A program made the position numbers and the translations under genes. Under the pieces are notes generated by a model. That model searched no databases. It was not told where the DNA came from and was given only the letters and a program-made list of their open reading frames with translations. Source: a virus (taxonomy: Duplodnaviria; Caudoviricetes). From it: DNA of 64,000 nucleotides. Below are positions 754 to 61,631 of this stretch, in pieces; positions within the stretch are counted from its first letter, which is position 1; each line of letters starts with the position of its first letter. Location: positions 1,989-65,988 of IMG/VR virus record IMGVR_UViG_3300002220_000425. One strand, given 5' to 3'.

Positions 754-783
754 CCTGTAACGTTACAGGCTGAAACGTTTCAC
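754..783. promoter_or_regulatory. Tandem TGWAACGTTWCA palindromes (operator or parS-like)
   Basis: CCTGTAACGTTACAGG (754-769, perfect) followed by CTGAAACGTTTCAC (770-783), intergenic. Confidence 0.75.
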
Positions 784-802
784 CCTCCAACAGAGAGATC
801 CA

Positions 803-2164
803 GTGAGAGTTATTGAATACGAAGTGTTCCACATGATGGGCCTCAAACGCGCCAACCTGAAGATGCCTGACAACGGTATCGTTCTGTTTGGCGGCGAGAA
901 TGGGCATGGCAAGTCGCGATCGATCGACTCGCTGCTGATGGCGTTGTGTGGCAAGTCTGGCATGGATTGGCCGGATGTTGAGCTTGCGGAAGAAGATCGT
1001 GAAGGATGGGTTCGCGTCAAGCTGAGCGGCGATGCTGAACTGCACGACATGGCAGGGTTCACTGTTGAACTGCAACTGAAGAAGCGTCGTGGCAAGTCAA
1101 CGCTTGAGCGGTTCCGCGTTCTGGACTCCACCGGCGATGAGGCGGCAACCCCGCGAGACTTCCTGCAAAAGCTTTACAGCCTTCGTGCGTTAGACCCTCG
1201 TGCGTTGGAGAAAGCCAAGCCCGCTGAGCGTGTTAGGCTGATCAAAGAGTTGGTTGGGCTTGATTTCAGCGCGTTGGACGCTGAACGCGAAGAGGCTTAC
1301 AAGAAGCGAACGGAAGTCAACCGCGACGGCAAGATGTTGCAAGGGCGGCGTACCGGGATCACGTTCCCTGAAGACACTCCCGATGCACTGATTAGCGTTG
1401 TTGAGTTGGTGGACAAGAAAGACAAGGCGATGGCGCACAACCGTGGCGTCGAGGAAGCGGGCAAGAAGCTTGCCAAGCTTGAAGCCAATGATGCGAAGCT
1501 TGCCGAAGAGATTGCCAAGCTGGAAGAACGCTTGCGAGCACTCAAGGATTCACGTGTTGAAAATCAGGAAGCGATCATCCAACAGAAAGCTGTTGTTGAG
1601 AAGTCGCAAATGGTCGATGTCACCGACATTCAGGCGGCAATCGTCAACAGCGAAGCGGTCAACAAGGAAGTGGCCAAGAAGCTTGAGGCAATGCGTATCG
1701 ACAAAGAGTTGCATGCCCTTGAGGTCGAAAGCCAGAAGCTTACCGACAAGATTGCACGCATCGACAACGAGAAGCAGCGGCGATTGGAGTCTGCCAAGTG
1801 GCCGTTACCAAACATGTCGCTTGATGATTCGGGCGTGTTGCTTGACGGGCTCCCGTTTGAGCAGGCCAGCGCAGCACAGCGGTTGATTGCCAGCGTCAAG
1901 GTCGGCATGGCGTTGAACCCCAAGCTGAAGTTGTTTGTTTCGAAGGACGGCAACGACTTGGATAACAACACGTTGCTTGAGCTTGACAAGATCCTCAAAG
2001 AGAACGGCTACCAGATGATTCTGGAGTTCGTCACTCGCAGCAATGCGGACGAATCGCGGTGTGCGGTGGTGTTCAAAAATGGAACGCAGGTTGGCTTGGC
2101 TGAGGAACCTGAGTTTGATGACGTTTCAGTGGACGCAGAGCAGGGCGGTTCTGAGGCAGAGTAG
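803..2164 (+). CDS. SMC/Rad50-like coiled-coil ATPase
   Basis: Walker A GENGHGKS near N-terminus, long central coiled coil, degenerate signature ASAAQR and C-terminal KDGNDLD. Confidence 0.8.
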   Translation: MRVIEYEVFHMMGLKRANLKMPDNGIVLFGGENGHGKSRSIDSLLMALCGKSGMDWPDVELAEEDREGWVRVKLSGDAELHDMAGFTVELQLKKRRGKSTLERFRVLDSTGDEAATPRDFLQKLYSLRALDPRALEKAKPAERVRLIKELVGLDFSALDAEREEAYKKRTEVNRDGKMLQGRRTGITFPEDTPDALISVVELVDKKDKAMAHNRGVEEAGKKLAKLEANDAKLAEEIAKLEERLRALKDSRVENQEAIIQQKAVVEKSQMVDVTDIQAAIVNSEAVNKEVAKKLEAMRIDKELHALEVESQKLTDKIARIDNEKQRRLESAKWPLPNMSLDDSGVLLDGLPFEQASAAQRLIASVKVGMALNPKLKLFVSKDGNDLDNNTLLELDKILKENGYQMILEFVTRSNADESRCAVVFKNGTQVGLAEEPEFDDVSVDAEQGGSEAE

Positions 2165-3940: not shown

Positions 3941-4894
3941 ATGACCAAGCCGATAGTGAAGCGGATTAAGATATCCGAGATCGTAAACGACATTGACCTA
4001 CAATCGCGAGTGTCGATCGATTCGGCAACCGTCGAAGAGTACGCCCAGGTTGATGATAAGAACTTCCCGCCGATCATCGTGTTCAAAGAGATCGTCGAGT
4101 TGGACAGTGAACTGTTCTGGCTTGGCGACGGATGGCACAGGCTACTCGCAGCGATAAAGCGAGGGCAGAAGGACATCTCTTGTGAGATCCGCGATGGCGA
4201 CCGCCGCGATGCGTTACTGTTCTCGTGCGGCGCGAACGCTACCCACGGATTGAATCGAACCACTGCCGACAAGCGACGAGCGGTAAAGCGGTTGCTTGTA
4301 GATGGCGAATGGAGCAAGTGGAGCAGTGCGGCGATTGCATCGGCGGCATCGGTCAGCACTCCGTTTGTTGCGTCTGTCCGAACGGAAATGGAGAAGGACG
4401 GCAGCACACCAGAAGCATCCACACGCATGGGCCGGGATGGCAAGCAATACCCTGCAAAGCTTCCGCCGAAACGTGACAGCGAATCACGTAACAGCCCGCA
4501 ACCAATCAGCCCGATCCGCGACAAGTCGGTGATTCCACCATCGCCCAAGAAACCTAGTGTCGCTCCGGTCGATGCGGACATGCCAGAGCGGTACGAGGAC
4601 AACGAAGGGAATGAGGTGCCTGAAACGTTGTACCCTGTTTGGCAGCGGCTTGACGACTACATGCGAATCTCCAACCGGATTCGTGAATCGGGCGTTACAG
4701 AGGCATTGGCAGAGCTTAAAGCGATCGGCGTCGAGCTTGGCGACAAAGACACGATTGCGTTTGCGGACGAAGCGATTGAGAAGATTCGTTTGATCGTCAA
4801 CGGCGTGAAGCAGCGAGCCCCCGCGTTTGTTCGTGGCGAGGGCTGGAGTTCGCTTTACACCGAGTTCATGGAGTCAGGTGAGTCTGATGAGTGA
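3941..4894 (+). CDS. Second ParB/Srx-like protein with HTH
   Basis: LQSRVSID..TVEEYA, FPPIIVF, LGDGWHRLLA, ANATHGLNRTTADKRRAV, HTH WSSAAIA..ASVS..FV. Confidence 0.75.
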   Translation: MTKPIVKRIKISEIVNDIDLQSRVSIDSATVEEYAQVDDKNFPPIIVFKEIVELDSELFWLGDGWHRLLAAIKRGQKDISCEIRDGDRRDALLFSCGANATHGLNRTTADKRRAVKRLLVDGEWSKWSSAAIASAASVSTPFVASVRTEMEKDGSTPEASTRMGRDGKQYPAKLPPKRDSESRNSPQPISPIRDKSVIPPSPKKPSVAPVDADMPERYEDNEGNEVPETLYPVWQRLDDYMRISNRIRESGVTEALAELKAIGVELGDKDTIAFADEAIEKIRLIVNGVKQRAPAFVRGEGWSSLYTEFMESGESDE

Positions 4895-6464
4895 AGTCTA
4901 CTCCGATCGCGATTACCAGATTCGCACTTACAAGCAGGTCGCACAAGCTTGGCATGAAGGGCACCGCCGAATCATTTGTTGCCTTCCAACGGGAGGCGGC
5001 AAGGGACGGATGGCAGCGAGAAAGCTCCAGATGAGTGCAGCCAAGGGGCGTGAATCGATTTTCTTTGCCGATCAGCGTGAGTTGATTAACCAGATCGCGA
5101 ACCACTTGAACACACTGGGCACACCGTACCGAACGATCATGAGCGGCGTTGAGGATGAATACCAAACCGCCGAGGAACACTTGGCAGCGCAGCAGTGTTG
5201 TTTGGTCGCGAAGGATACGCTTTGGGCTCGTGCCATGCGAACCAACAAGATCGAGCTTCCAGCGGCAGACGTGATCCACATTGACGAATGCCACAAGAGC
5301 CTGAGCAGGACTTACCAAACGCTATTGGAGAAGTACCCCAATGCAACCGTTATTGGATGGACTGCAACGCCTTGCCGAAGCGACAACAAGCCGTTGGGAA
5401 CGTTCTATACCAAGCTGATTCAGGCAGCGACGTATGAGGAACTGCAACGCAATGGGTTCTTGGTTCCGGTCAGGGTGATTGCACCAAGCCGACCAGACTT
5501 GAAGGGCTGCAAGGTGAGTCGCGGCGACTATGCCAAGGGCGATCTTGAAAAGCGAATGAACCGGGACGAGATGGTAGGTTCAATCGTCAAGGAATGGCGG
5601 AAACATTCGGACGGTCGATCGACAGTGTTGTTTGCTGCGGGGATCTCCCACAGCGTTCATTGCCGCAACGAGTTCAGAGCGATCGGTGTGACCGCCGAAC
5701 ACCTTGACGGAACGATGGAAGCATCCGAGCGCGAGGACATTCTAGGGCGTGTCGCAGACGGCAAGGTGCGAGTGCTTTGCAACTATGGGGTAGCCACAAC
5801 CGGCGTGGACGTTCCCGCGTGGAAGTACATGATTTGTGCAAGGCCAACCAAGTCGTTCAGTTTGTTCAGGCAGATGGGCGGGCGGATCCAGCGGCCATAT
5901 CCAGGTCACGACCATTGCATGATCCAAGACCACTCGGACAACTGCATCATCTTCGGACACCCCGACGAGGACGTTGAATGGGACATCGACGGCGAAGAGG
6001 ACCAGGGCAAGAAGCACGCGGAACGCATGAAGAAGCCCAAGGACGGCGACAAGGAACCTCGTGAACCGTACACATGCCCGTCATGCTCAACGCAGTATCG
6101 CGGTCCCCATTGTCCAGCGTGCGGCGCGAAGCGGGAACGCAAACCTGAAGAGGTCAAGATGACCAAGGGCGAACTGCAAGAACTGGAACGCAAGAAAGCA
6201 AACCGGGCTGCAACGTTAATGGACAAGCAGAAGCATTGGGACGAATGTTTGGGGTGGGCGGTCGGTACAAACAAACTCGTGGGCGCTGCGGCTCATCGCT
6301 ACAAGGAAAGGTTCGGCGTGTTCCCCAACAGCGAGATCCAGAACGTGCCGCGTTCATCGCAATGGAAGATGAAGGGCAAAGACTTCTACATGCAACACGT
6401 GAAACCAGAACTTGAACGCGCCAAGCGTCAGGCGGCTTACGAAGGGGCTGGTGAGTTATTTTGA
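4887..6464 (+). CDS. SF2 DEAD/DEAH-type helicase (RadD/YejH-like) with Zn ribbon
   Basis: LPTGGGKG, HIDECH, WTATP, TGVDVP, QMGGRIQRP, CPSC/CPAC; probable start MSEVY at 4887. Confidence 0.9.
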   Translation: MSEVYSDRDYQIRTYKQVAQAWHEGHRRIICCLPTGGGKGRMAARKLQMSAAKGRESIFFADQRELINQIANHLNTLGTPYRTIMSGVEDEYQTAEEHLAAQQCCLVAKDTLWARAMRTNKIELPAADVIHIDECHKSLSRTYQTLLEKYPNATVIGWTATPCRSDNKPLGTFYTKLIQAATYEELQRNGFLVPVRVIAPSRPDLKGCKVSRGDYAKGDLEKRMNRDEMVGSIVKEWRKHSDGRSTVLFAAGISHSVHCRNEFRAIGVTAEHLDGTMEASEREDILGRVADGKVRVLCNYGVATTGVDVPAWKYMICARPTKSFSLFRQMGGRIQRPYPGHDHCMIQDHSDNCIIFGHPDEDVEWDIDGEEDQGKKHAERMKKPKDGDKEPREPYTCPSCSTQYRGPHCPACGAKRERKPEEVKMTKGELQELERKKANRAATLMDKQKHWDECLGWAVGTNKLVGAAAHRYKERFGVFPNSEIQNVPRSSQWKMKGKDFYMQHVKPELERAKRQAAYEGAGELF

Positions 6465-6859
6465 AACGATCAAGCCTAAAACGTTACAGCCTGAAACGTT
6501 CGCAGCGTGAGGCTGAAGCCAAGCCGTTTCGCGATGGGCTCATTGCCAAAGTCGGCTACTGCGAGAAGTGCGGAGTGGCAGGCCAAGGCAATGGCCACCC
6601 CAATGCAAGGCTTTGCGTGCATGAGATTGCCAACGGTCCATTGCGACAGAAGGCACTTGATCAACCGTATGCCGTGCTGGTGTTGTGCTGGCCCTGCAAC
6701 GGATTGGCCACAGACAAGGGCACTTGGCCGGAAGCCGAGCAGCTTGCGTGTTTGAAGATCAACCGCCCCGAGGACTATGACCTCAAAGCATACAACCGAT
6801 TGGTGAACGAGAGAGCACCGAATCGGATCACTGAAGAAGAAGTCGATCAATTCACTTAG
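6461..6859 (+). CDS. HNH/NinG-like Zn-binding protein
   Basis: MKRSSLKR N-terminus, CEKCG, CVHEI, LCWPCN. Confidence 0.55.
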   Translation: MKRSSLKRYSLKRSQREAEAKPFRDGLIAKVGYCEKCGVAGQGNGHPNARLCVHEIANGPLRQKALDQPYAVLVLCWPCNGLATDKGTWPEAEQLACLKINRPEDYDLKAYNRLVNERAPNRITEEEVDQFT

Positions 6860-6866
6860 GACAATC

Positions 6867-7070
6867 ATGAACCCACAAAAGCCAGTCAATTTCCCATTGC
6901 GTCTTCCCCGTTCGATCGACACCACGTTGCGACAAGAGGCGAACCGTGATGGGGTAAGTATCAACTCGGTGATCCTGATGCACTTGGCCCGATCGTTGGC
7001 GATGAAGGCGACACAGGCAACGAAGGTTCCGAGAACCCGGCAGAGAACCACCCCCAAAGACGGCAAGTGA
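6867..7070 (+). CDS. Arc-like ribbon-helix-helix regulator
   Basis: FPLRLPRSIDTTLRQEANRDGVSINSVILMHL. Confidence 0.75.
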   Translation: MNPQKPVNFPLRLPRSIDTTLRQEANRDGVSINSVILMHLARSLAMKATQATKVPRTRQRTTPKDGK

Positions 7071-7613: not shown

Positions 7614-8750
7614 TTATCCGGCGCCGCGCCGGTTTATTCTCCCAAACAGCCAATCCCTGACCGTATTGGCTGCAAGCAGCAATCGGTGATCGTGTACCAT
7701 CTCCCGGTACACTCCACCCATCGTTTCATCGACGTGCCCCATGATGTAGTTTACGGCAACTTGATCCTTACACGCGCCCGCTTCTGTCTCGAATGTGTGC
7801 CGCAACCAGTAGAACCCGCCTGCTTTGATGCAGGCCGCTTGGCGTACCGCACGGAACCGCTTGCTGATGTCCCCGTTGGATTCGCTGAACTGCTTGCCGT
7901 TCGCACGCACGAAGGCGTACTTGAGTTCTGTCTTGGGACGGCGATTGAGCGATGCAGACAGGGCTTCCCGCGTTTCAGGCCACAGCGGGCAGCGGCGGTC
8001 AACTTCTGTCTTGGGGCGTGGATAGTCGATCCATCCGGTCTTCACTGCTTTGGTTGCCACTGACAGCGGAAGCTCGTTGATGTCGTTGTTGCCGAAAGCG
8101 CAGTTGATCCCCAGCAGCAGCATCGCCTTGAAGTGAACGCCGGATTCGTCCAGCAGCAAATGAATCTGCTCTGGCGTGAACAGCATCTCGTCGCGTGTTC
8201 TGCGATGACGGCGAACCACCTTGGAGCTTGGCTTGCGGAAGTCGGTGCCGGTGTCGATCGTCGCAATCTTCTTGTTGGCAGCAAGCCACTTGAGGATCGT
8301 CTTAACCCGGGTGATCTCGTTCCCAACGGAGATGACGTTGCAACTCTGCAACCTGCCAGCGCGGTACGCCTGGAAGTCTTCTGGCGTGAGGGTGGCAATC
8401 GCCCTGGCTCGGCCCCACATCGCAATGAGCCGCTTGGCTGTACGGCAGTAATCCTTGTATGTCCGATCGGAGAGGTGGCCTGAGTCGCGATCGTCGCGCT
8501 TGGCCAGTAGGAACAGGTTGCACGCATCAGACAGCGTAAGCGATAGCGTGGTGGATTCCGCGATGAACTTCTTGGACTTCTCGCCACCGTCCTTGGCGTA
8601 CGCTTCGTATTCACGCAACGCCCCGGGAGCATCTTCCCAGCGTCCAAAATAAATCAACTTTCCTTTGATTTTTTTGGCCCACTTGCCGGAATCGTGCGGG
8701 AAGAGAGGGAAGTCGGGGTACGGTTTCGGCGGCTTAGCTTTACCTTTCAC
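7614..8750 (-). CDS. int: Tyrosine integrase
   Basis: N-terminal arm domain KPPKPYPDFPLFPH..KWAKKIKGKLIYFG; YWLRHTF, IMGH, VYRE; adjacent to a tRNA 3' half. Confidence 0.93.
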   Translation of the reverse strand: MKGKAKPPKPYPDFPLFPHDSGKWAKKIKGKLIYFGRWEDAPGALREYEAYAKDGGEKSKKFIAESTTLSLTLSDACNLFLLAKRDDRDSGHLSDRTYKDYCRTAKRLIAMWGRARAIATLTPEDFQAYRAGRLQSCNVISVGNEITRVKTILKWLAANKKIATIDTGTDFRKPSSKVVRRHRRTRDEMLFTPEQIHLLLDESGVHFKAMLLLGINCAFGNNDINELPLSVATKAVKTGWIDYPRPKTEVDRRCPLWPETREALSASLNRRPKTELKYAFVRANGKQFSESNGDISKRFRAVRQAACIKAGGFYWLRHTFETEAGACKDQVAVNYIMGHVDETMGGVYREMVHDHRLLLAANTVRDWLFGRINRRGAG

Positions 8751-8770: not shown

Positions 8771-9024
8771 TACACCACCGCTAAACCCGTCCGAAGTTTT
8801 GATGGTGTAGTAAGTGCCAAAAAAACGGAGAAAAAAGTACACCCGGCAGGATTCGAACCTGCAACCCTCGGTTCCGAAGACCGATGCCAGACGTTAGGAC
8901 TTCCAGCGTTTCCCGCTATTTGCCGACTCGGACAAAAATGACTAAACCCATTTGTTGCCGAAAATCGTGATATAGCCCGTGATATTACACCCACTTTACA
9001 CCACTACTCCTTGCAGATACACCA
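8771..9024. repeat. TACACC(A/C) repeats flanking the att core, candidate integrase arm sites
   Basis: Copies at 8771, 8803 (inverted), 8986, 8997, 9018. Confidence 0.55.
8838..8887 (-). other. attP core: 3' half of tRNA-Arg(UCG)
   Basis: Minus strand GCA-TCGGT-CTTCGGA-ACCGA-GGGTT-GCAGG-TTCGAAT-CCTGC-CGGGTGT-A; no 5' acceptor strand or D-arm upstream. Confidence 0.85.
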
Positions 9025-9588: not shown

Positions 9589-9614
9589 GGGTGACACGTT
9601 TAACGCTGTCACCC
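9589..9614. promoter_or_regulatory. Inverted repeat GGGTGACA-N10-TGTCACCC (operator-like)
   Basis: 8-bp perfect arms in the leader of the 9299-9568 gene; half-site equals the TGTCAC promoter element. Confidence 0.6.
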
Positions 9615-9642
9615 ATTCTATCCAGGCCAATCCTGGCGTCTA
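9615..9642 (-). promoter_or_regulatory. Sigma70-like promoter TAGACG-N16-TAGAAT
   Basis: Minus-strand match to -35/-10 upstream of 9568; spacer is itself palindromic (CCAGG-N5-CCTGG). Confidence 0.4.
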
Positions 9643-11127: not shown

Positions 11128-11168
11128 AAACAAAAAACCCCTGCCAGACAATTATCCGGCAGGGGTGA
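11128..11168 (-). terminator. Intrinsic terminator overlapping a promoter motif
   Basis: Minus strand CCCCTGCC-GGATAATTGTCT-GGCAGGGG-TTTTTT. Confidence 0.7.
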
Positions 11169-13239: not shown

Positions 13240-13268
13240 AAAAAAACCCGCTCGGATAACCGAACGGG
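13240..13268 (-). terminator. Intrinsic terminator
   Basis: CCCGTTCGG-TTAT-CCGAGCGGG-TTTTTTT on the minus strand. Confidence 0.7.
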
Positions 13269-13298
13269 GTGAGGGTGAAACGTTACAGGGCGTAACGT

Positions 13299-14147
13299 TT
13301 AAGCGTTTGCGGGTTCAGTCTGAACCGTGTGAACCTTCTCAACAAGCTTGGCCTTGGCAGCGTCGATCTGCTTGAGCAGTTCTGCTTGCTCCGAAGACAG
13401 GTACTCGGCATAGCACTCTGCTTTGTGCTTGATTTCCTGCCACTTTTTGATTCCACGTGTCATCGTCGTGGTACGAGTGGTGTCGTCCCAACCGTCAACA
13501 CACTCGTTGAGTTCGTCGAGGATTGCACGCAAGCCGCTGGCAACGGCTTCCTTGACGCTCTTGTTGCCGTCAGAAGTACCTTTCGGGACAGGGAATCGCC
13601 ACAGCGAGCCACCCATCGCCTCAATAAACATCTGGACCTTTGCGGTAAAGCCAGCATGTGCTTGGGGCGTAAAATAGGCAATTCCGCGCCGGGGATTGAT
13701 TGGGAACAAGTCAGCGTTGTTCTTGAACATGGTTTGGACCATGCGGGTAATGTCACTGGCTGTTCGCACTTGCATGGCATGGGCATAAAGCTTGCGAGCT
13801 TCAGTCTCGACTTCAAGCGATTCACTTTGAATGTCGCCAGTCTTGGTGTCGAGGATAACACGGCACTCGTACTGGAAGTCCATTGTCTCGCCTGCGATCT
13901 GCTTCTTGGTAAGCTGGAAGGTGATCGTCCCGTCCTTGCCCTGCTTTACCTTGTCGATCGATCGGTTTTCCTTCAAGTGCTTTGTGGCACGAGTGAACGC
14001 CGATCGGCTGTTCAAATCCTTGGCAACGCATGGAAGCCCTGCAAGTTCCAAGGCTTGACGGATGACGGCAATGTCGATCTCGCCTTCGCCAGTGTCCCAA
14101 GTAACGATCTCGCCAAGCAAGTGATCTGGTGATGTTGTAACGCTCAT
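13299..14147 (-). CDS. DUF6744-like protein
   Basis: LLGEIVTW, RSAFTRA, LFPINPRRGIAYFTP, SVKEAV..GL; sits upstream of the AAA/VWA pair. Confidence 0.6.
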   Translation of the reverse strand: MSVTTSPDHLLGEIVTWDTGEGEIDIAVIRQALELAGLPCVAKDLNSRSAFTRATKHLKENRSIDKVKQGKDGTITFQLTKKQIAGETMDFQYECRVILDTKTGDIQSESLEVETEARKLYAHAMQVRTASDITRMVQTMFKNNADLFPINPRRGIAYFTPQAHAGFTAKVQMFIEAMGGSLWRFPVPKGTSDGNKSVKEAVASGLRAILDELNECVDGWDDTTRTTTMTRGIKKWQEIKHKAECYAEYLSSEQAELLKQIDAAKAKLVEKVHTVQTEPANA

Positions 14148-14274: not shown

Positions 14275-14307
14275 AAAAAAACCCACGTGCCGCATGACAC
14301 GTGGGTT
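14275..14307 (-). terminator. Intrinsic terminator
   Basis: ACCCACGTG-N8-CACGTGGGT followed by a T run on the minus strand. Confidence 0.7.
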
Positions 14308-18973: not shown

Positions 18974-19273
18974 TTACCGCATGTTCAAAGACATGGAGAT
19001 GATTTGGCTCCACGAGTCACTGAAGTGCGACTTCTCGTAACGCAAGCATCGATGTTCGACGTGCGACTTCATGCTGGCGATTCGATCTTGCAGCTTCGGC
19101 TTGGTCAGACCACGGATCATCGACTTGAACTCGGTGCCATCTTCGGACGTGTAGATCACGGGAACGAAGTACCGATAGCGGTTGCTTGCCGGAAGGCGTT
19201 GAGCAAACTCTTTGCCCATGTCGGCAACCTCGTTCACGATCTTCATGGAAACTATTACGTGTGCGTTCGTCAT
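18974..19273 (-). CDS. Hypothetical protein
   Basis: 99-aa ORF with TGGAG SD. Confidence 0.6.
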   Translation of the reverse strand: MTNAHVIVSMKIVNEVADMGKEFAQRLPASNRYRYFVPVIYTSEDGTEFKSMIRGLTKPKLQDRIASMKSHVEHRCLRYEKSHFSDSWSQIISMSLNMR

Positions 19274-19351
19274 TGCATTGCTCCAAGGGTGAAACGTTAC
19301 AGGGTAAAACCAGAGCCGAGCCGCCCTGTCGAAGCGGCGCGGGTGCTGGGT

Positions 19352-19618
19352 TCACTCAGCGTCATCGTCTTCGCCATCACCAAACAGTTCTGTCCATCCA
19401 ACTGGCGAAGTGCCAGAGATCAAGAACTCACGATCTTCGGCAGGCAGTTCTGGGAAAGCCTCTTGGATTCGTGCTCCACTGGAGTATCGATCAAACCCTT
19501 CCATTGGCACTTGGACCGAATAGGATTCGCCAGTGACAATGCAAGGCCCGGTGAACACAAGTGATAGTTCAGGTGCGACAACGGCACGGCAGTGGCAAGC
19601 GGCTAAGGCATATCGCAT
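19352..19618 (-). CDS. Conserved phage hypothetical protein
   Basis: GARIQEAFPELPAEDREFLISG..P.GW..LF motif. Confidence 0.65.
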   Translation of the reverse strand: MRYALAACHCRAVVAPELSLVFTGPCIVTGESYSVQVPMEGFDRYSSGARIQEAFPELPAEDREFLISGTSPVGWTELFGDGEDDDAE

Positions 19619-19687
19619 GACTGATGCTCCATTAGGGTTAAACGTTACAGGGTGAAACGGACCAGAACCGGCAGTCCGTCACCACAG

Positions 19688-20746: not shown

Positions 20747-21048
20747 ACTACAAGAGCAAGCGGAAAACCCATTCAAAGCGACAAGAACGCATCGCGCGAT
20801 ACCAAGAGGATTCACGCAAGAAGGTGATCGAACCGATTCCCTCAAAGCCCGGTACAGTGTTCGAGCCAATGATCTGCATGGATTGCGAGACGGTCTACAC
20901 AACTGACGACACCCATATCCGAATGAACTCCAAGGTGTTGTGCATCAAGTGCGAGGGAATGCTGATGTTGTTGCACCAATACGACGCAGACCGGGACGAG
21001 TGTGAGCTTGACGTTCGCTTGAAGGAAACGCTTCGGACCACGCTGTAA
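20743..21048 (+). CDS. Zn-ribbon hypothetical protein
   Basis: CMDC...CIKC. Confidence 0.6.
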   Translation: MNYKSKRKTHSKRQERIARYQEDSRKKVIEPIPSKPGTVFEPMICMDCETVYTTDDTHIRMNSKVLCIKCEGMLMLLHQYDADRDECELDVRLKETLRTTL

Positions 21049-21068
21049 CGTTGCATCCCCCTTCCATC

Positions 21069-21087: not shown

Positions 21088-21147
21088 TGCTAGTGACAGC
21101 CCTGTAACGTTACAGGCTGGGTTTAGAGCTTACTAAAGGGGGACGGG

Positions 21148-22483: not shown

Positions 22484-22587
22484 ACGGGGGCAGGGTGCAA
22501 CGTTTCAACCTTGCCGATTGTGGCCCACTGCGTGAGCCGTGCGCCACTGTGAACGCTCGGCATGGCGTTGGGATCATGAAACGAATA

Positions 22588-23428: not shown

Positions 23429-23507
23429 TCGTGAGACTCCAAAACGGGTTTGAAACGGGGATGATCAGGCTGAAACGTTACAACCTGTCATGATTCGGAC
23501 AATGGTA

Positions 23508-23526
23508 TTATCAATCAGGGGTGACA
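23508..23526 (-). promoter_or_regulatory. Phage promoter-like motif embedded in the sigma gene's stop region
   Basis: TGTCACCCCTGATTGATAA(T) encodes V-T-P-D-stop. Confidence 0.6.
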
Positions 23527-24083
23527 AGCGATTGCATGTCACGCAATTTATCGGGGGCGAATAGGGCAAAGCGTTGGCGTAGGGTAGCCTTGTATCGTTG
23601 CACTTTGCGTACGGAGCAACCGAGTTCTGCCGCTGCCATTTCGTTGCTCATCTCCAGAAACAACCGTCCGTCAAACGTCATGCCAGATAGAACAATCGCT
23701 GCGCGTAGTTCGTGAACGTCATGGCATAGTCGCGATACGTAGCTGGGCAGTCGGTTGTCGCTGGGTTCGGTGTCGGCCACCAGCGACGAATCAACGGGAT
23801 CGTCTGCGAACGGCGATAGGTGGCCATCATGACAAGCTTGTTGCTCAATCCAGTTGATTAACACTGCATGCACTGAGAGATAAACCGCGCCACGTATTGC
23901 CGATGCTGATTTTGGCGGTCGTTTGGCGATCGTTTCTAAGGCTTTAATCAAGGCGTCTGTGCTGAGGTCGTCAATGTCTGCGGGTTGCATGGTCATGCCA
24001 TACAATCGCAACTTGCGCGTTAGCCGTCTGCGGGCCATTCGCTGAAGTTTCAAGGCGTTGTCGTTGTCAATTTGTGGGATCAC
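23511..24083 (-). CDS. ECF/sigma70-like factor
   Basis: Region-2-like ADIDDLSTDALIKAL; region-4 HTH MSNEMAAAELGCSVRKVQRY; 190 aa. Confidence 0.65.
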   Translation of the reverse strand: MIPQIDNDNALKLQRMARRRLTRKLRLYGMTMQPADIDDLSTDALIKALETIAKRPPKSASAIRGAVYLSVHAVLINWIEQQACHDGHLSPFADDPVDSSLVADTEPSDNRLPSYVSRLCHDVHELRAAIVLSGMTFDGRLFLEMSNEMAAAELGCSVRKVQRYKATLRQRFALFAPDKLRDMQSLVTPD

Positions 24084-29052: not shown

Positions 29053-29071
29053 ATATCCGGCAGGGGTGACA
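29053..29071 (-). promoter_or_regulatory. Phage promoter-like motif
   Basis: TGTCACCCCTGCCGGATAT upstream of the serine recombinase. Confidence 0.65.
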
Positions 29072-29233
29072 CGGCAGCTTGCTACACCTCCTTATTTTAG
29101 CCTTAGCAAGTCCAAGAAAAAACGCACTTGACTATTGCGATCGCACCTAAACAGGTGTTAAATGAATAGTGACAGCCTGTAACGTTTCAGGCACAGCGGT
29201 CCAATCGCCCAAACATTGTGGCAGGAGTTTGAC

Positions 29234-37001: not shown

Positions 37002-37061
37002 GCTGAATGGTTACAGCCTGTAACGTTTCAAGGTGTTTCGCAACAATCGAAGGTAAATCCC

Positions 37062-39873: not shown

Positions 39874-40577
39874 GCCACAGCATGAAACGTTACACCCAGA
39901 AGGTGATTATTGAAAAGTTTCTGGAACAGAATCCAGACTGGTCCAAGTATCCAGACTTGATCACCAATCCGCCAACGTCTGAAGAGTTGCAAGTTGAGTT
40001 CAAGGATGTTGATCCTGAAGTGTTGCGGCGGCATGGCGAGTGGATTGCAACGTTGGTGACGCGGGGGGCGTTTTACTTCCGCGCACGCATGCAGGGTTCA
40101 AGCGATCGTGCTGCGGCGATGTACGCACTTCAGAAGACTGCACGGATTGAAACTGACGACGTGTTCTTCCAGGGTGCCAAGCCGCTTTACGATCAGTTTG
40201 AAAGCCAGCAGGCATTGAACCGAACATTGCGTGAGAGCAAGAAGCGAGGCTTCACGCCTGACAAGAACGCGATTTACTACCCGAACCTTGCAAGGTTCAG
40301 GGGCGATCCTGAAGCGTACGTCACCCGTGCGATGGGTCGTTCGTACATTCGCAAGCTACTTGAGAAGCGAGGTTGGTCGGCAGAGGGCGGTGTGAATGTT
40401 AAAGGGCGAGAGCCTGAATCAGATCCGCTTGACGCAAAGAACTGCAAGCCGCTTGGTGAGGACATTGTTCGTCGCAGGATGTCCGAAGAGATCAAGAAAA
40501 ACCCCGATCTTGCGAGGGGCAAAAACCGCAAGGAGTTACGGCAAAAGATCATTGAGCGTCACGGGTCAAAACCTTAG
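39870..40577 (+). CDS. Hypothetical protein
   Basis: 235 aa coupled to the portal gene; LARF.GDP.AYV motif. Confidence 0.65.
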   Translation: MSHSMKRYTQKVIIEKFLEQNPDWSKYPDLITNPPTSEELQVEFKDVDPEVLRRHGEWIATLVTRGAFYFRARMQGSSDRAAAMYALQKTARIETDDVFFQGAKPLYDQFESQQALNRTLRESKKRGFTPDKNAIYYPNLARFRGDPEAYVTRAMGRSYIRKLLEKRGWSAEGGVNVKGREPESDPLDAKNCKPLGEDIVRRRMSEEIKKNPDLARGKNRKELRQKIIERHGSKP

Positions 40578-46305: not shown

Positions 46306-46362
46306 CTGAAACGTGACCGCCTGAAACGTTTCAGCCTGCAACGGAAAATCCAGAAGGTCACC

Positions 46363-47292
46363 GTGAAAGATCCAGACCAGCCAGACCTGAACGATCCTCG
46401 CCGCAGGGAGTACGACTTCCATCAGGCGATGGCTGCACAGCGGCAGATGGCTTCCGGTACGTTCGGACAGCACCACAGCGCAATCCTGCCTGACGCAGAC
46501 AATCCTCGCGGAGAGTCAACCAAAAGCAGGCTGGAGTCGATGATCAGCGAAGCGGTCAAAAGTGCCGTCACGCAGATCACCACCAACGTGGCAGGGTTCG
46601 TTGATTCGGCAATCGATCACGAGCCGCCAAAGGTGGTTCAGCCTGAAACGTTTCAGGCTCAAGTGATACAGGAAGCCCAGCGGCAAGAGGTTGTTCAGCC
46701 GCAACCGATCAAGCCACAGGCCGAACCGATCATTGTCCAGGCGCCCGCGCACCGGGCAGAAACGGTCCAGCACCAGACGCCACAAATGCCAGACGTGCCG
46801 CAGATTCGCACGCCTGACGTGAACATGGTGAACCCATTCCGCAACGAGGCAGAGGCACCCAAGACGGCGTTTGCGCCGATAGAGCCACAAAAGCCAGCGT
46901 TGCAGGCGTTGCAGCAGATGGCACCGCCAGAAAGGCCAATTGAGGTTGTTCGTACGGGATTCAGGGTCGCTCAGCCACAGCAGCAGGCCGAAGACTTAAA
47001 CGAACCGCCCAAGCCAGAGCGGCGAGCGGTTCCGCAATGGCCAACTGACCGAGCGGCATGGGGTCCGAGCGAACCGTTTTTGGATCCAGGCGGACAGACA
47101 GCCGATCCACAGAAGTCTGCCTATCAAGCCAAGTCGCTTGAGCAGGCCATGCAGTTTAGTGAAGCCATGGACAGCTACGGAATGGCAATGGGCGAGTTTA
47201 CTGAGGCAGTTGCCGAATCGATTCGTGTCCTGACCCGCCGTGTGAACGACATGACACGCGCGATTCAGGGAGAGGGTTACGACATCCGATGA
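46363..47292 (+). CDS. Pro/Gln-rich hypothetical protein
   Basis: 309 aa low-complexity; contains a perfect 20-bp palindrome at 46640-46659. Confidence 0.6.
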   Translation: MKDPDQPDLNDPRRREYDFHQAMAAQRQMASGTFGQHHSAILPDADNPRGESTKSRLESMISEAVKSAVTQITTNVAGFVDSAIDHEPPKVVQPETFQAQVIQEAQRQEVVQPQPIKPQAEPIIVQAPAHRAETVQHQTPQMPDVPQIRTPDVNMVNPFRNEAEAPKTAFAPIEPQKPALQALQQMAPPERPIEVVRTGFRVAQPQQQAEDLNEPPKPERRAVPQWPTDRAAWGPSEPFLDPGGQTADPQKSAYQAKSLEQAMQFSEAMDSYGMAMGEFTEAVAESIRVLTRRVNDMTRAIQGEGYDIR

Positions 47293-48059
47293 GCGCTCCC
47301 AGAGGCTTGATATTCGAGTATGGCAGTTACCAGCATGAACGCGGTGAAGTCTACCCACAAATGATCGAGATCATGTCGGTGGATAGCGATCGTGGCTACC
47401 GCTGGGCGTTCGATTACCGCATGCAGATTGCCGGCAACTTCTGTCAGGCACCAGACAATCCGCTAACACCGGCAACGATCGACGCAAAGATTCTTGCTCT
47501 GACCAATGCGTACGCGAACGACTACCAAGACTTCGGTTTTCTGTTTGGCGACTTGTCGCGCACGTCGCATTACATGGAAACGGACCACGTTGACAACTTA
47601 AGCGGGAACAAAGTGTTGTCGCGATCGTGGGATTATCAGAGTCCTGCGGAGTTTGCGAACACGCGATCGTTCCAGATACGACTTGGTGCGAAGATTTTCA
47701 GTTCGTACAATTCGATTCTGTACTTTCAGGAAACTGTTTCGCAGCGCGGCACAGGCGGGCCACGATGGAATTACCAAGAGCGATGGCAAGGCATACCGAT
47801 TCGCGAGGACATTACCCAAAGAACGGCGGTTGAAATCTACCAGCGCGGCATTGTCGTTGGGGCAAACTCGTTTGTTCAGCCACCTCCCCCGTGGTGGCCT
47901 GACGACGAACAGCAGGAGTTTCGTTATATCGAAAGGGTAAGCCCAAGGCTTCACGGGCACCCAAGCTTCGCAAAGGCCACTCATCACACAGTACGGTATT
48001 CGTACAAGTTTATGATGGCAGTGAGCCCGAATCAGAACCCTAACATCTGGTATCCGTAA
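47289..48059 (+). CDS. Tail-region hypothetical protein
   Basis: 256 aa, translationally coupled. Confidence 0.6.
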   Translation: MSAPRGLIFEYGSYQHERGEVYPQMIEIMSVDSDRGYRWAFDYRMQIAGNFCQAPDNPLTPATIDAKILALTNAYANDYQDFGFLFGDLSRTSHYMETDHVDNLSGNKVLSRSWDYQSPAEFANTRSFQIRLGAKIFSSYNSILYFQETVSQRGTGGPRWNYQERWQGIPIREDITQRTAVEIYQRGIVVGANSFVQPPPPWWPDDEQQEFRYIERVSPRLHGHPSFAKATHHTVRYSYKFMMAVSPNQNPNIWYP

Positions 48060-49480
48060 TGAGCGCAAGGGCAACGCTGACCGGATTCCCAGAGGTGGTT
48101 GCGGTCGATATTTTCATGGGCTCATACGCAGAGCCTGGCAACATTGTCGTGGACACATTGGTTCGCGGCAGCCTTGTCCCAACATCGCTCCCCAGGGGCG
48201 ACGTGACGCTTACTATCGGCGCAAGAAGCGAACTTGAGCAAGTCTCTATAGACTTCACCAGACTGCGAATGAAGAAGCTTCCCAGGCAATATGGGGCTTT
48301 CATGCGAACGGTATGGGAGGACGAAAGATGGAAGCTTCGAGAGTTCACCATGGGGGAAAACTTCAACGTTCGGGACTGCGAAGGAACGATATACCCTGAA
48401 ACGGAAAAGACGATCTTGGAGTTGGTTCAAGAGATCGCAGACGTTTCCAATATGAACATATCGGCAATCGAGCTAGGCTTGCCAGATTACAAGCCATCAG
48501 CCCCGTGGAAGGGAATGACTGCGGAGCAAGCACTTAACCAGCTACTGCACGCCACGTTCACAAGAATGCTTTATACCGGGAGTGGATCGTACGTCGTGTG
48601 TGCGGCCAATACTGGCAATCTGCCAGACTTTGGAGAGAGGTTTTTTAGTCCGTATCCAGAAGCAAAGTACACCGGAATACGGGTCCAGACAGCACCGATT
48701 ACCTACGAAAAGCGGTTCCAGTGCGATGCGGTCGTTTGGAACAACGACAACGAAACAGAGGTGGTGCAAAACCCTGAGAGGATATTCAACAATTTTGTTG
48801 AGATCGAAGACTTGAGGCTTCGCTCCAAGTACGCACATTCGGCAATGAGGCTTTGGCGACCGAACGACGAAGATATTGTTCTTCTTGGCAGGCGGGCGTT
48901 GTCGGTAGCGCCAGGGTGCGATGACAGCACGTATGCGGCGATGGTATTTACCATGCCCGATCTTGCGAAGGTTCCATTGTATGGGCATTTAATACAGCCG
49001 CACGGTCAACCGTACAGCAATGCGCCAAATCAGCTTTCGCTGACTGGTGGTGGTGAGATTATCCAGTGCGAGCAGGCCCACTTAATTGTTGACGGTAGCG
49101 GTCAGATTGAAACAACCGCTGAAGTGCTTTGTGCCTACCACAAGATTGTCAACGGAGAACTTGAGCGAAGATCGACAGATGTTGCTGTAGGTGGGGAAGG
49201 CGGCATGCTGAAGCTCTACGTAGACTGGATTCGCCCTGTTGACACAACCGAACCTGACATCGATCCGCTGGAGTGGGACTCGCTGCTTAACAAGGTTGAG
49301 GATGCGGTTGAACTCAAGTACCAAGGCGAACCGCAGCATGTAACGTTACCGACTGTTGTGGCGGTGCCGCCAAGCGGAAAGATCGGAGGTTTGCGATACG
49401 TGCTGAAGCTTGGTTCGCACCCCGAGTGCTACACAGTAATTGCCGTAAACTTTGATCCGGCAGATGCGAGGGCAATGTGA
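48059..49480 (+). CDS. Tail hub/baseplate-like protein
   Basis: 473 aa; EDERWKL, TILELVQEI, W.GMTAEQALNQLL. Confidence 0.5.
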   Translation: MSARATLTGFPEVVAVDIFMGSYAEPGNIVVDTLVRGSLVPTSLPRGDVTLTIGARSELEQVSIDFTRLRMKKLPRQYGAFMRTVWEDERWKLREFTMGENFNVRDCEGTIYPETEKTILELVQEIADVSNMNISAIELGLPDYKPSAPWKGMTAEQALNQLLHATFTRMLYTGSGSYVVCAANTGNLPDFGERFFSPYPEAKYTGIRVQTAPITYEKRFQCDAVVWNNDNETEVVQNPERIFNNFVEIEDLRLRSKYAHSAMRLWRPNDEDIVLLGRRALSVAPGCDDSTYAAMVFTMPDLAKVPLYGHLIQPHGQPYSNAPNQLSLTGGGEIIQCEQAHLIVDGSGQIETTAEVLCAYHKIVNGELERRSTDVAVGGEGGMLKLYVDWIRPVDTTEPDIDPLEWDSLLNKVEDAVELKYQGEPQHVTLPTVVAVPPSGKIGGLRYVLKLGSHPECYTVIAVNFDPADARAM

Positions 49481-60200: not shown

Positions 60201-61534
60201 GACCGCCAGTGCTCACCGACGAAGAGGCCACGCGAATTATCGGGCGAATGGCAGCTAGCCAGGGTGTGGTTGGCAAGTTCGAGGGGAACGCAACGTCGAT
60301 CATTGGACAACCAACAGGTCAGTCCGGAGATTTGATGGACACGCTTTCGGGCATACCGCGACCAGGCAATCAGCAGATATCAGCAGGCAGGGTTGCGCGT
60401 AAGGCTGTAGGCATGGAACCGGGAACCAGCCTGAATCCAATTGACGTTCGCGGCGTAGGCGGGCGAGAGGAAAGCGGGTTTGGTATTGCGGCGGCAGGGG
60501 AGGAAATCGGCAACTACATCGAAGGCATGAACCGACTTGGCCCGTGGATCACGATGATGAAACGCGGGTACGATCCGGCAGAAGCATCCAAGAAGGCGGG
60601 TGCTGCTCAGGTGCTCTACGGCAACAAGAATTACACGCCATTTGAACAGCAAGTGATGGCACGGCTGTTTCCATTCTACAAATTTTCTCGCGGGTCCATG
60701 CCGGTCGTTGCTCGGAACCTGATGGAGAAACCGGGTGGAATGTACGGCACGATCATCAAGGGAAACAACCGTGCTCAAGGTGATGGTGAACTTGCTCCTG
60801 ATTACGTTCGGGACACGGCAAACATTCCCGTTGACCGAAACAACCCGATCTTGTCAGCGATCGCAGGAACGCCACCAGAGGGCACTGATCGCTACATCAC
60901 GGGCTTTGGTCTGATGCACGAGGACTTAATGGGCTTTGGTCCGTCAGTGCGTGGTGCTGGGCTCGAAGCATTGTCCAGAATGAACCCATTCATTAAGGGG
61001 CCGCTGGAGTGGTCAACCGGGCAAACGTTCTTCCAGAGGGGACCAGAAGGTGGTCGCGACCTGGACAAGCTTGACCCAACCATTGGTCGTCTTGTCGCCA
61101 ACGTCATGGGGCAGACAGAACCGGACGATTCCAAGAAGTTCCCGTTGTGGATGGAGCAGATTGTCGCGAACTCACCGATTGCCCGAGCAACAACCACAGC
61201 GAGATCGCTCACTGATCCACGCAAGCGATCCGAAACAGTGCCGGGAATGCCGGGTGCTGCGTCGTTGCTCAACACGCTTACCGGGTTCCGTGTTTCGGAC
61301 GTGTCGCCAGCAAGCAAAGACGCAATCTTGCGGGAAATGCTCAATTCTGAAATGCAGGATGCGGGTGCTTCAGTGTTCGAGCGAGTGTACTTCAGCAAGG
61401 AGGAACTCGACAAAATGTCTCCCGCAGCAAGGGAGAATGCGATCAAGCTCCAGGGACTGGCCAACGTGCTTGCACAGCGATCTAAGGAACGCAAGGCACA
61501 GCGACAAGCAGAGGAAGCGAAGAAAGGCAAATGA
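54242..61534 (+). CDS. Large polyvalent (DarB/ejection-type) protein, 2430 aa: ART-like, SAM-MTase, RSE-type ART, zincin protease
   Basis: IYHGT...AGTYFT; VVDYGSG; LYRG...STG...EEEFL; VMLHELGH...EQFAE. Confidence 0.8.
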   Translation: MSEILRSINPAMANLLLPAAPAAIRPASRRREPAPYVDEEEERTLAGSLRDKSLTTIGAVGNLLDLPGSMVRDVGSSIVQGKFVNPFDQLLSPLSADNRTTGKDLLRQTGIVDDADTWGNAIAGFGAEVAMDPLTYMTFGGSALGKSGQLASKAGLLDELGSVAARKAGKQVGQVGSREARLTTTLADVAQYGTERSAAKAKQILKDSPDLADEAFGGLAGFGLPFMQPMAIAGQGAKSQAVARGLDTAGRTVRYGKIPGTEFQPVNSLLNLFDAPAMGTKSPMWQAIARHKSRQKDVKSADVLMDTNRWATELEQAGLVGQDAADMLRDGLEGVVPIDSLPDAMQPIARQMRAQSAEMPARGRVDGVQITELTDDEIDYAARFLVATRGIHGKRSKAVFTADDPSNQGRKDFMRNVPGGTNKLKRELFLDDAINAAVDNGSDVDTIRKMMEAKANGWLPDTFKEFNPKAEGAVDGWVVKEGRYQKIAEWFGGLSKETREAGVFGNHPILDHTARRMAFEDSINATETVAMALSQPKILLPPSAAANVAADGSMTVGEVLAKLKMDLGDVNGGLGRKIMKSKGMAPDDDSIKALRDRRLSKENAEELMSIHRTISGPDAINDLIGMMDSVVNYSKGMWTSVWPAFHVRNRISGALQNMALGIWSKEGDTWADQLLKGKVIEGAAKEPWVRAVWEREQAELARINALTPPGGAAPGPGQPPGPGGQMPGQPGAGVSPTMATPTGEFVEIDGVARPTVDSNGKPIHTTEEGVRNFWSAFRDSKLVDDQGRPIPIYHGTRSADLGTAAAKDRNRKIDQAKLSLDEWNAAHKQSYSDLSTQRYSAIEAEADAHDRIASLLKSNRAASSATKASSWQSFSESVKADVSPETWRAVDKGLLKQEFDRLQLAKREAESIQERLDQIPKKPSSSLATATKGSEAAVFDTMRYGENDTGYLSAGTYFTKNAELSGNYAGAGEGAGVIPVYANLKNPFVHGVTNDPRIDEMVNATVAEMHERIRAARGSVDDYSRANSLARRKVLEDLGYDGEIYERGVANAAGVARRDLAESEVVVFQPEQVKSAIGNRGTFDPGSPDIMATPSDAFDADFANAAGKTARPWKMTTTYRQASSLVRPGMKVVDYGSGPYQNIRQTIVDAGGEYTPFDRYGNIGKIEDIGNADIVMGSNVLNTAVYASDPEQAYYAALEEMAGALKPDGKLVVNMPTSGPMADWMTPKRLKEDLEQMFESVSRKGEVFTASGAKVQGGGFADELRKIPGHIRDNPSLQDQEALRRAARHDIRSGNGLRRAMEDVISGTSPPKSANVSVYEDRLKAWTILDELDKSPLVEVPLYRGERAVTAGVDNRNVSVGDRILLGGKIASTGITSKRNVAEHFAGGVIYEIEPGAKALRVSTGPDVPFSKSIAGEEEFLATGKFEVTDVQDLGDQRIIKVRHVEPASIPRPVAQGQLRQGSIATGNRGTFDPGSPDIMATPIDRTPPRSLYRQADAMEALAAMDPGRQIVGDGPAGAMERHFTDNPDLALGQGRNADGVLMEFADDFGAKAQNTAGYAVSAAMGKGGSFVAPVNPSSLARHLRSATFPSEKDVPRYMMSQEWLDESGFAMRRLDSGQVEFRKQEPLPLDEPGQTLDSVGPTPKEARELAKALKPAAIPKVGNQEINKWTEEQINWVKDPKNFKALSPQHEKLNGFLDYFVAKKAIKPEDADILRIIYSQTDARYLPDEVNAGRVLKTQQGNKVTGALGFAEAQQWHPKDRVSLLSKARKGSRDQSSAYNEGTRVMLHELGHIVYFAALRSNDPAQLAVLREFHNLAGTAGKPTFIDEFMSGGNTKFQAEYHAGASKHKNNLTNPEREQFAEFFAHSIMRRKIPTGAFGQVITKALDWLRLQLSKLASVTGLQPSVRQRLDEIMDELGGFNNAPDLSATLQGGRRAGKQGGQQVPPTGQVPPQVPGQAPPGQPPVAPPGQGVAPGGPVPGPPAPSGPPVLTDEEATRIIGRMAASQGVVGKFEGNATSIIGQPTGQSGDLMDTLSGIPRPGNQQISAGRVARKAVGMEPGTSLNPIDVRGVGGREESGFGIAAAGEEIGNYIEGMNRLGPWITMMKRGYDPAEASKKAGAAQVLYGNKNYTPFEQQVMARLFPFYKFSRGSMPVVARNLMEKPGGMYGTIIKGNNRAQGDGELAPDYVRDTANIPVDRNNPILSAIAGTPPEGTDRYITGFGLMHEDLMGFGPSVRGAGLEALSRMNPFIKGPLEWSTGQTFFQRGPEGGRDLDKLDPTIGRLVANVMGQTEPDDSKKFPLWMEQIVANSPIARATTTARSLTDPRKRSETVPGMPGAASLLNTLTGFRVSDVSPASKDAILREMLNSEMQDAGASVFERVYFSKEELDKMSPAARENAIKLQGLANVLAQRSKERKAQRQAEEAKKGK
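57476..58689 (+). repeat. 47-bp direct repeat (38 bp identical) at 57476-57522 and 58643-58689
   Basis: ACGTTTGATCCAGGCTCGCCAGACATCATGGCAACGCC twice, 1167 bp (389 codons) apart. Confidence 0.9.
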
Positions 61535-61631
61535 AGTTTTGCCGCTGGTGTTGTAACTGATATCGCCAATAGCTAAAGTGGTGTGAGGTTACAGCCTGTA
61601 ACGTTTCAGGGTTCCATTCTGAGGTGATGCC

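Follow-up and report, generated by a model that had tools for sequence, protein, structure and literature searches.

Dispersed palindromes in a probable Pirellulaceae phage as candidate sites of a phage-encoded regulator

The DNA analysed here is a stretch of 64,000 nucleotides (the window), bases 1989-65988 of the 65,988-bp IMG/VR virus record IMGVR_UViG_3300002220_000425, which is rated 99% complete. It carries a short palindrome, TGWAACGTTWCA, at about 22 loci, and the question is what such a scattered set of sites is for. A first-pass annotation of the window offered two answers, namely a stoperator-like network of operators, or a centromere whose parS-like sites are loaded by two ParB-like proteins of the phage. 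We lean towards a form of the first answer, in which the palindromes are double-stranded DNA binding sites of one dimeric phage-encoded regulator and together make up a genome-wide control network.

Copy number, structure and placement of the palindrome

The exact palindrome occurs 17 times in the window and 18 times in the whole genome, the additional copy (genome 1209-1220) lying 779 nt before the window begins. Only 0.03 copies are expected in the window from dinucleotide shuffles, and 0.025 in the genome from an order-3 Markov model, so that the count against a Markov background proposed in the first-pass annotation shows a real enrichment. With up to 2 mismatches, 41 copies were observed in the window against 7.1 expected, and when degenerate partners are included there are about 29 units at 22 loci (Table 1). 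The 22 positions listed in that annotation all hold the motif, with offsets of 1-5 nt. Beyond its list are one-mismatch copies at 22496 and 49339 and degenerate tandem partners at 25439, 37004, 46307, and 61582. The copies are often tandem, as it had noted: seven loci hold two units with a 15-bp period, the degenerate unit being the upstream one relative to transcription in five of them. The loci 37009 and 61587 do share the 22-mer GGTTACAGCCTGTAACGTTTCA without a difference, and between 29163 and 37004 the 27-mers agree at 25 of 27 positions, degenerate unit included.

We aligned the 22 loci in the orientation of local transcription. The core reads TGWAAC followed directly by GTTWCA; AACGTT is invariant, and TG and CA are nearly so. 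Eight of the 12 core positions do not vary over the 22 loci, whereas the flanks drift, and the core is therefore likely to be under purifying selection. Outside the core there are S-rich triplets, then CA at -5/-4 (17 and 16 of the 22 loci) and TG at +15/+16 (19 and 12 of 22). The conservation thus extends symmetrically beyond the core, and the full element is a 22-bp dyad, CAGSC-TGWAACGTTWCA-GSCTG. At the junctions of the tandem pairs the sequence reads GTTWCA-SSS-TGWAAC, which is the half-site order of parS, with a spacer of 3 bp rather than 2 bp.

The two W positions are not coupled. In the 18 exact copies they are complementary 8 times and non-complementary 10 times; the variant TGAAACGTTTCA accounts for 4 of the 18 copies and TGTAAC for 18 of the 36 half-sites. 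Copies in the leftward operons read ccc-core-ccc, and their flanks are therefore non-complementary. An RNA hairpin of -8 kcal/mol or better is predicted for 7 of the 18 copies and no hairpin for 3, and a T-rich tail follows one copy only (26747-26758, where the segment 26744-26761 scores as terminator-like). There is no clear polarity relative to transcription, the ratio of T..T to A..A variants being 7 to 5. Hairpin formation is not the conserved property. The non-complementary W positions and flanks and the weak hairpins point to selection on each half-site, as expected for protein recognition, and the pattern fits a protein dimer that would read each half-site on duplex DNA.

Of the 18 exact copies, 14 lie wholly between genes, in a genome that is 91% coding (binomial p = 3.6e-12). 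Another three are no further than 40 nt from a gene boundary, and only the copy at 46644 is deep within an open reading frame (ORF). Past the end of most copies the next start codon follows after 15-37 nt.

Promoters and the sigma-like gene

The phage has 13 copies of a 20-bp promoter-like motif, TGTCACCCCTGCCGGATAAY, and the palindromes are associated with it. Among gaps of at least 30 nt, the palindrome is present in 9 of 12 promoter-bearing gaps versus 5 of 20 others (Fisher p = 0.008). Five loci are 3-15 nt upstream of a promoter element: the copy upstream of the window start and that at 32305 are 3 nt from the TGTCAC element, and those at 21044, 22496, and 24810 are 10-15 nt upstream of the promoter. 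Three others (21103, 23471, 19638) are 15-40 nt downstream of a -10-like element, and the rest are far off. These positions bear out the first-pass annotation, in which several copies were said to abut the promoter motif or to follow it.

One exact copy is placed differently. It fills the 18-nt spacer of a sigma-70-like promoter (24177-24148), which points at the sigma-like gene 23511-24083 and is one of three sigma-70-like matches in 16-33 kb. The promoter spacer is a classic operator position, and the location of this copy suggests that its occupancy may shut off the factor that presumably reads the 13 phage promoters. Sigma-70-like promoter matches fall below the shuffled expectation (3 versus 6.4, and 3 versus 10.1; window 1-33000), as would suit a phage that depends for the most part on promoters of its own type. 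A second sigma-70-like promoter (9642-9615, minus strand) is followed by a 2-mismatch unit, TTAAACGTGTCA, and then by a gene for an 89-amino-acid (aa) protein near the putative attP.

Several other features of the promoters were observed. A GGTGACA-N10-TGTCACC inverted repeat (9596-9619, minus strand) comes directly after the promoter 9642-9615, with the weak unit 9592-9603 placed inside the repeat; its TGTCAC half-site is the upstream element of the phage promoters. In a relative of the phage (IMG/VR locus L006, 1166-1182), GGTGACAtcgTGTCACC is found in the gap after the major head gene. One copy of the promoter motif is outside the window, 764 nt upstream of its start. Another copy, TGTCACCCCTGCCGGATA at 29053-29075 (minus strand), is directly upstream of the start of the serine recombinase gene (29046), so near that the transcript would be almost leaderless. 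The leftward block has strong intrinsic terminators at 11137-11166, 13247-13268, and 14280-14307 (minus strand), and at 11166-11137 it is the promoter motif itself that pairs with downstream sequence to make the terminator. The promoter 19-mer had no other match in IMG/VR.

Table 1. Palindrome loci and other features, in window coordinates. Unit starts are given where a locus holds two units; a slash joins the units of the seven tandem pairs.
Feature	Position	Strand	Unit starts	Context
Tandem pair, both exact	756-782		756/771	Between exonuclease gene 126-746 and AAA_23 ATPase gene 803-2164; 20 nt before start codon; only tandem pair with two exact units
Tandem pair, 1 + 3 mismatches	6477-6503		6477/6492	Junction of helicase gene and next gene
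Weak unit, 2 mismatches	9592-9603	minus		Just downstream of sigma-70-like promoter 9642-9615; family membership uncertain
Tandem pair, exact + 2-mismatch	13276-13302	minus	13276/13291	Between stop of 13299-14147 and terminator hairpin 13268-13247
Exact unit	19290-19301			16 nt upstream of start of 18974-19273 (minus strand)
One-mismatch unit + half unit	19638-19664		19638 (one mismatch)	Downstream of leftward promoter 19706-19687; 19 nt before start of 19352-19618
One-mismatch unit	21044-21055			13 nt upstream of phage promoter 21069
Exact unit	21103-21114			Starts 15 nt past -10-like element of promoter 21069
One-mismatch unit	22496-22507			About 10 nt upstream of leftward promoter 22483-22464
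Exact unit	23471-23482			24 nt downstream of leftward promoter 23526-23507
Exact unit	24157-24168			Within spacer of sigma-70-like promoter 24177-24148 (minus strand)
Exact unit	24810-24821			Upstream of rightward phage promoter 24835
Tandem pair, 2-mismatch + exact	25439-25465		25439/25454	3' end of helix-turn-helix + ribbon-helix-helix gene; 15 nt before start of 25481-26035
Exact unit	26747-26758			37 nt before start of 26796-27050
Degenerate + exact unit	29163-29189		29178 (exact)	Divergent region between serine recombinase gene and late operon start
Exact unit	32305-32316			3 nt upstream of TGTCAC element of promoter 32320; part of perfect 20-bp palindrome
Degenerate + exact unit	37004-37030		37004/37019	Directly after terminase stop codon; junction overlapping or short in relatives
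Exact unit	39883-39894			9 nt past stop of 37534-39873
Degenerate + exact unit	46307-46333		46307/46322	57-nt gap before 46363-47292
Exact unit in perfect 20-bp palindrome	46644-46655			Well within ORF 46363-47292
One-mismatch unit	49339-49350			Within ORF 48059-49480
Degenerate + exact unit	61582-61608		61582/61597	After 2430-aa gene; 23 nt before start of 61632-62234
Sigma-70-like promoter (TTGCCC, 18-nt spacer, TATCAT)	24148-24177	minus		Spacer filled by palindrome 24157-24168
tRNA-Arg(TCG)-like element, likely attP	8837-8909	minus		Adjoins integrase gene 7614-8750
Candidate binder 1, 301 aa	2246-3151	+		DGHRR motif; central helix-turn-helix; ParB/Spo0J/Noc/KorB-like predicted fold
ParB_N-type protein	3941-4894	+		DGWHR motif; pairs with adjacent helicase; unlikely binder
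Candidate binder 2	25107-25478	+		GcrA-like N-terminal helix-turn-helix and C-terminal ribbon-helix-helix-like segment (the latter by eye); behind promoter 24835
Candidate binder 3, 89 aa	9302-9568	minus		Near attP and integrase; behind sigma-70-like promoter
Candidate binder 4, Arc-like ribbon-helix-helix protein	6867-7070	+

The phage, its host and the candidate binding proteins

The genome has a G+C content of 54% and 82 genes. A rightward replication and recombination block encodes an exonuclease, an AAA_23/SbcC-like ATPase, two ParB-like proteins, an SSB-like protein, a ResIII/DEAD helicase, an Arc-like protein, and an Xis-like protein. The other modules are a tyrosine integrase, a long leftward block whose products include a VWA protein and a clamp-loader-like protein, a small regulatory region that contains the sigma-like gene, a serine recombinase, and a rightward block of structural genes, among them those for the major head protein, the terminase, and a 2430-aa protein. 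No relative was found among cultured phages by DNA (megablast) or by terminase protein (tblastn), and the terminase query of a genome-contig collection did not yield one.

Terminase relatives were found in 3 of the 401 Pirellulaceae genomes searched. One of them contains a syntenic prophage (G197:C50, loci L230 and L231, 38,213 bp) whose shared gene order extends from a serine recombinase, over the genes for head, terminase, and tail, as far as the C-terminus of the giant protein; its major head protein is 64% identical to that of the phage and its terminase about 50%. Neither a palindrome network nor the promoter motif is present in this prophage. The 3' 50 nt of the tRNA-Arg-like element are identical to tRNA-Arg genes of Pirellulaceae and Planctomycetaceae, and its 5' part is degenerate, as expected of an attP. 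From the tRNA identity and the syntenic prophage, the host is most likely a member of the Pirellulaceae (Planctomycetota). The phage probably integrates, as judged from its tyrosine integrase and tRNA-Arg attP and from related elements that are integrated prophages. Orphan 3' fragments of tRNA-Arg were seen in several Planctomycetota genomes (loci L135, L147, L161, L172, and L214), and this tRNA appears to be a commonly used att site.

The palindrome is specific to this phage. In the 401 Pirellulaceae genomes (2.4-16 Mb) it occurs 0-8 times per genome, like a reversed-word control, and is unclustered; in the genome with the highest count (G144) the copies are scattered over megabases. In five host-type genomes it is as frequent as the control (0-2 copies), and the three examined copies, in three genomes, are within long ORFs. 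The motif density in the phage is roughly a thousand times that in the Pirellulaceae genomes. These background counts rule out a host-wide iterated palindrome, uptake sequence, or repetitive extragenic palindromic (REP) element. At the matching gene junctions, relatives of the phage have overlapping genes or short gaps where the phage has motif-bearing gaps of 57-98 nt. Since these relatives lack the motif and have tight junctions, the sites are likely to be recent, lineage-specific gains.

A scan of IMG/VR with an 18-mer gave one unrelated contig, and a scan with the tandem pattern gave 15 contigs with a single chance-level match each, except for L092 (IMGVR_UViG_3300015608_002113). This unrelated viral contig of 59% G+C has a dense cluster of GTAAC, GTTAC, and GAAAC at 1900-1990 and three exact TGWAACGTTWCA units within 210 bp, and the region looks like an origin or iteron region. 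Three other identities of the motif were rejected. It is not a methylation or restriction target of the AACGTT type, as the extended motif is present at only about half of the 46 AACGTT sites. By reading, the site is CTG-N8-CAG and not the CTG-N10-CAG of an E. coli-type SOS box. Invertase sites of the hix/gix type have a 12-2-12 geometry, and about 22 loci would be too many for them.

Four phage proteins were considered as candidate binders, and an Xis-like protein (gp7072) is a further candidate. For gp2246-3151, the top Foldseek matches of the AlphaFold model are all ParB/Spo0J, pNOB8 ParB, Noc, and KorB. The model is weak, with a mean predicted local distance difference test (pLDDT) score of 63 and less than 50 for the N-terminal 54 residues. 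The protein gave no match to Pfam ParB_N and no sequence match to solved ParB structures. By eye, its segments DGHRR and LSRRNL resemble ParB boxes II and III, with the Glu-Asn of box III apparently replaced. The loci that encode distant homologues of gp2246-3151 have no dispersed palindromes; the co-occurrence comparison covered such distant homologues. The closest homologues of phage proteins were P0001 (98% identity), P0002-P0010, and P0036-P0040. A metagenome scan with a ParB-like alignment gave only relatives of the N-domain, none with the motif.

The second ParB-like protein, gp3941-4894, has homologues that carry PF02195. A protein of this type is beside the same ResIII/DEAD helicase in about 25 IMG/VR loci of otherwise unrelated phages (e.g. 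L289, L298, and L254; window 3941-6464). None of 80 loci encoding a gp3941-4894 homologue has dispersed palindromes, and there are none on G197:C24. The conserved pair of ParB_N protein and helicase in many phages suggests a role in replication or recombination, and gp3941-4894 looks like a part of such a module and not a reader of the sites. The claim that both ParB-like proteins are loaders thus survives for gp2246-3151, as a candidate, and hardly for gp3941-4894.

In gp25107-25478, the helix-turn-helix segment reads WGDEQ...GWTQGQIA and the ribbon-helix-helix-like tail VFVRLPKGLHREF..., and a tandem site is at the 3' end of the gene. This pairing of two DNA-binding modules seems unusual. 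The 89-aa protein belongs to a rare family, with 14 relatives among 1.8 billion representatives, and its confident model gave no significant fold match with Foldseek or VIA-align. The phage has no LacI-type helix-turn-helix (no PF00356 match). A ParA-type ATPase was not found either: no match to PF13614 or PF01656 at E <= 1 was obtained when the 65,988-bp genome was searched in six frames, whereas 14 of 14 control genomes matched.

What the palindromes might be

The palindromes might act as nucleic acid structures, either as RNA hairpins in termination, processing, or translational control, or as DNA cruciforms. Perfect palindromes of 18-22 bp, for which hairpins of -10 to -16 kcal/mol are predicted, are found among the copies, the usual place of the copies shortly before a start codon would suit such a role, and one copy is terminator-like; even so, we consider this very unlikely, as 10 of 18 copies have non-complementary W positions and flanks are often non-complementary, 11 of 18 fold more weakly than -8 kcal/mol and 3 have no predicted structure, T-runs are missing apart from one copy, and copies upstream of promoters would not be transcribed with the gene. 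A selfish or neutral palindromic mini-repeat, spread by copying through intergenic gaps and without regulatory function, would fit the shared 22-mer and 27-mers, the tight junctions of relatives where the phage has repeat-bearing gaps, and the lineage specificity of the motif. We regard it as unlikely, because the core is held invariant while the flanks drift and the sites are promoter-associated, with one copy exactly in a promoter spacer; moreover, no transposase or HUH-type enzyme was recognised among the scanned proteins, and no target-site duplications were seen. Another reading is that a host repressor of the LacI/Cra (FruR) type uses the sites and couples phage expression to host metabolism. 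A central CG and a 6+6 layout are typical of LacI-family sites. Furthermore, TGAAACGTTTCA is exactly the fruB O1 operator of E. coli, and the Cra consensus is GCTGAAACGTTTCA (PMC4050194, PMC10760178). The host is a planctomycete and not an enterobacterium, however, and in host-type genomes the motif has the control frequency and its examined copies are intragenic. Half of the half-sites are TGTAAC, which breaks the invariant TGAA of Cra and misfits its consensus (TGAAWC followed by GWTTCA). Relatives from the same host family lack the motif, and the phage lacks a LacI-type helix-turn-helix. The identity to fruB O1 is a coincidence of letters, and a role of a host regulator is quite unlikely.

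The two remaining readings involve the ParB-like proteins. As a true centromere, the palindromes would be parS loading sites that segregate a plasmid-like prophage. Dispersed centromere sites are known from N15-type phages, two ParB-like proteins are encoded, and the half-sites resemble those of chromosomal parS (ParB/Spo0J), TGTTTCACGTGAAACA, with which they share the hexamers GTTTCA and TGAAAC. The resemblance noted in the first-pass annotation stops there, since the order of the half-sites is the opposite: TGAAAC precedes GTTTCA in the phage unit, and parS reads GTTTCAC then GTGAAAC (xTTTCxx, xxGAAAx), an order that is found here only at the seven tandem junctions. No ParB-family site is known to have the half-site order of the phage unit. 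The phage also has an integrase beside a tRNA-Arg attP matching host-clade tRNA genes over 50 nt, the elements related to it are prophages in the integrated state, a ParA-type ATPase was not detected, the ParB_N-helicase module occurs elsewhere without palindromes, and the sites are promoter-associated. We therefore hold a partition system, the other half of the earlier proposal, to be extremely unlikely. A more specific form of the operator network seems possible but doubtful. In it, the ParB-fold protein gp2246-3151 would load at the palindromes, as KorB does, and silence proximal and distal promoters, possibly as a clamp dependent on cytidine triphosphate (CTP). Its predicted fold and central helix-turn-helix, the segments resembling boxes II and III, the parS order and 3-bp spacer at the tandem junctions, and the position of the only all-exact tandem pair, 20 nt before the gene block to which its gene belongs, all favour this. 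So does the placement of sites both 3-15 nt upstream of promoters and far from them, which mirrors the proximal and distal OB operators (PMC11790492). Against it are the low confidence of the model, the lack of a match to Pfam ParB_N or, by sequence, to solved ParB structures, the apparent replacement of Glu-Asn in box III, the loci of distant homologues that have no dispersed palindromes, and the everted half-sites of the unit that is always conserved.

The operator network remains the reading we prefer. Its sites are intergenic, promoter-linked, free of a conserved hairpin, and specific to the phage, and the operator half of the first-pass proposal fits all of these properties. Binding by one regulator, repression, and the candidates for the binder are what we add to the observed enrichment and placement. 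Sites that overlap or flank promoters would act as operators; these are the spacer site at 24157 and the five upstream and three downstream sites. Sites in short intra-operon gaps may act as stoperator-like roadblocks or as extra anchoring points. When the promoter of the sigma-like gene is occupied, the phage's own promoter regulon might be turned off as a whole. Some points weigh against this reading. Syntenic relatives (IMG/VR L006 and L007, and prophage G197:C50 and G197:C24) have no motif. The near-identical 22-27-mers at three loci show spread by copying, with which a selfish element is also compatible; the sites have probably spread at least partly in this way. The sigma-70-like promoter was called by a match to the consensus only. 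None of the phage candidates stands out as the binder. No CI-like repressor was recognised, and scans of the small proteins with PHROGs and Pfam gave no repressor family, though no search was aimed at gp71. Finally, we infer repression, rather than activation or a non-transcriptional role.

Dispersed sites of this kind are already known from other phages and plasmids. The conserved inverted repeats of phiC31, which are bound by the phiC31 repressor, are one analogue. More than 20 sites are bound by the L5 repressor, some at promoters and others in the short spaces between genes (PMC9283540). With this phage, the Cluster A mycobacteriophages (L5 gp71 and the TipsytheTRex repressor; PMC9283540) share a temperate genome with more than 20 dispersed copies of one short site, at promoters and in intra-operon gaps. 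Their sites are asymmetric 13-mers that are bound by a monomer and oriented with transcription, whereas the phage site is a dyad, is often doubled at 15 bp, and has no clear polarity. No gp71-like repressor was recognised in the phage by general scans, and the host is a planctomycete. Cluster O mycobacteriophages have 34 copies of a 17-bp dyad of unknown function, TGTTCGGNNNCCGAACA (PMC4351075). Both cases show dozens of one short palindrome throughout the genome, many between ORFs, but the Cluster O dyad has a 7-3-7 layout and that of the phage is 6+6 within a 22-bp dyad. In addition, the phage sites are statistically tied to a phage-specific promoter set and a sigma-like gene. On the IncP plasmid RK2, the OB operators of KorB are 4-10 bp, or 45 to >1000 bp, from promoters (PMC11790492). 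There, too, dispersed palindromic operators are promoter-proximal and distal on a mobile replicon of about 60 kb, and the element encodes a protein with a helix-turn-helix, to which gp2246-3151 with its predicted ParB fold would correspond. Unlike RK2, the phage has no ParA/IncC partner and no recognisable KorA, its half-sites are everted, and it integrates. The link between protein and site is putative, and protein and sites do not co-occur in the examined loci (distant gp2246 homologues, the 80 gp3941 loci, and G197:C24).

The planctomycete host and the coupling to a sigma-like factor set this case apart, and phages of Planctomycetota are almost unstudied. A compact regulatory design can be read from the sequence, in which a host-type promoter drives a sigma-like gene whose product would serve about 13 phage promoters, overlaid by about 22 palindromes. 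If the binder were found, the system could be tested as a model for the switching of an entire programme in such a phage, and it would yield orthogonal parts, both promoters and operators, for a phylum in which genetic tools are scarce. There is a small chance that gp2246-3151, with a ParB/KorB fold and no partner, is itself the genome-wide silencer at the palindromes and controls the host-type promoter of the sigma-like factor together with its regulon. If so, KorB-like long-range control would have moved into the lysis-lysogeny circuit of a phage, and KorB-type silencing would extend from plasmids to integrating phages.

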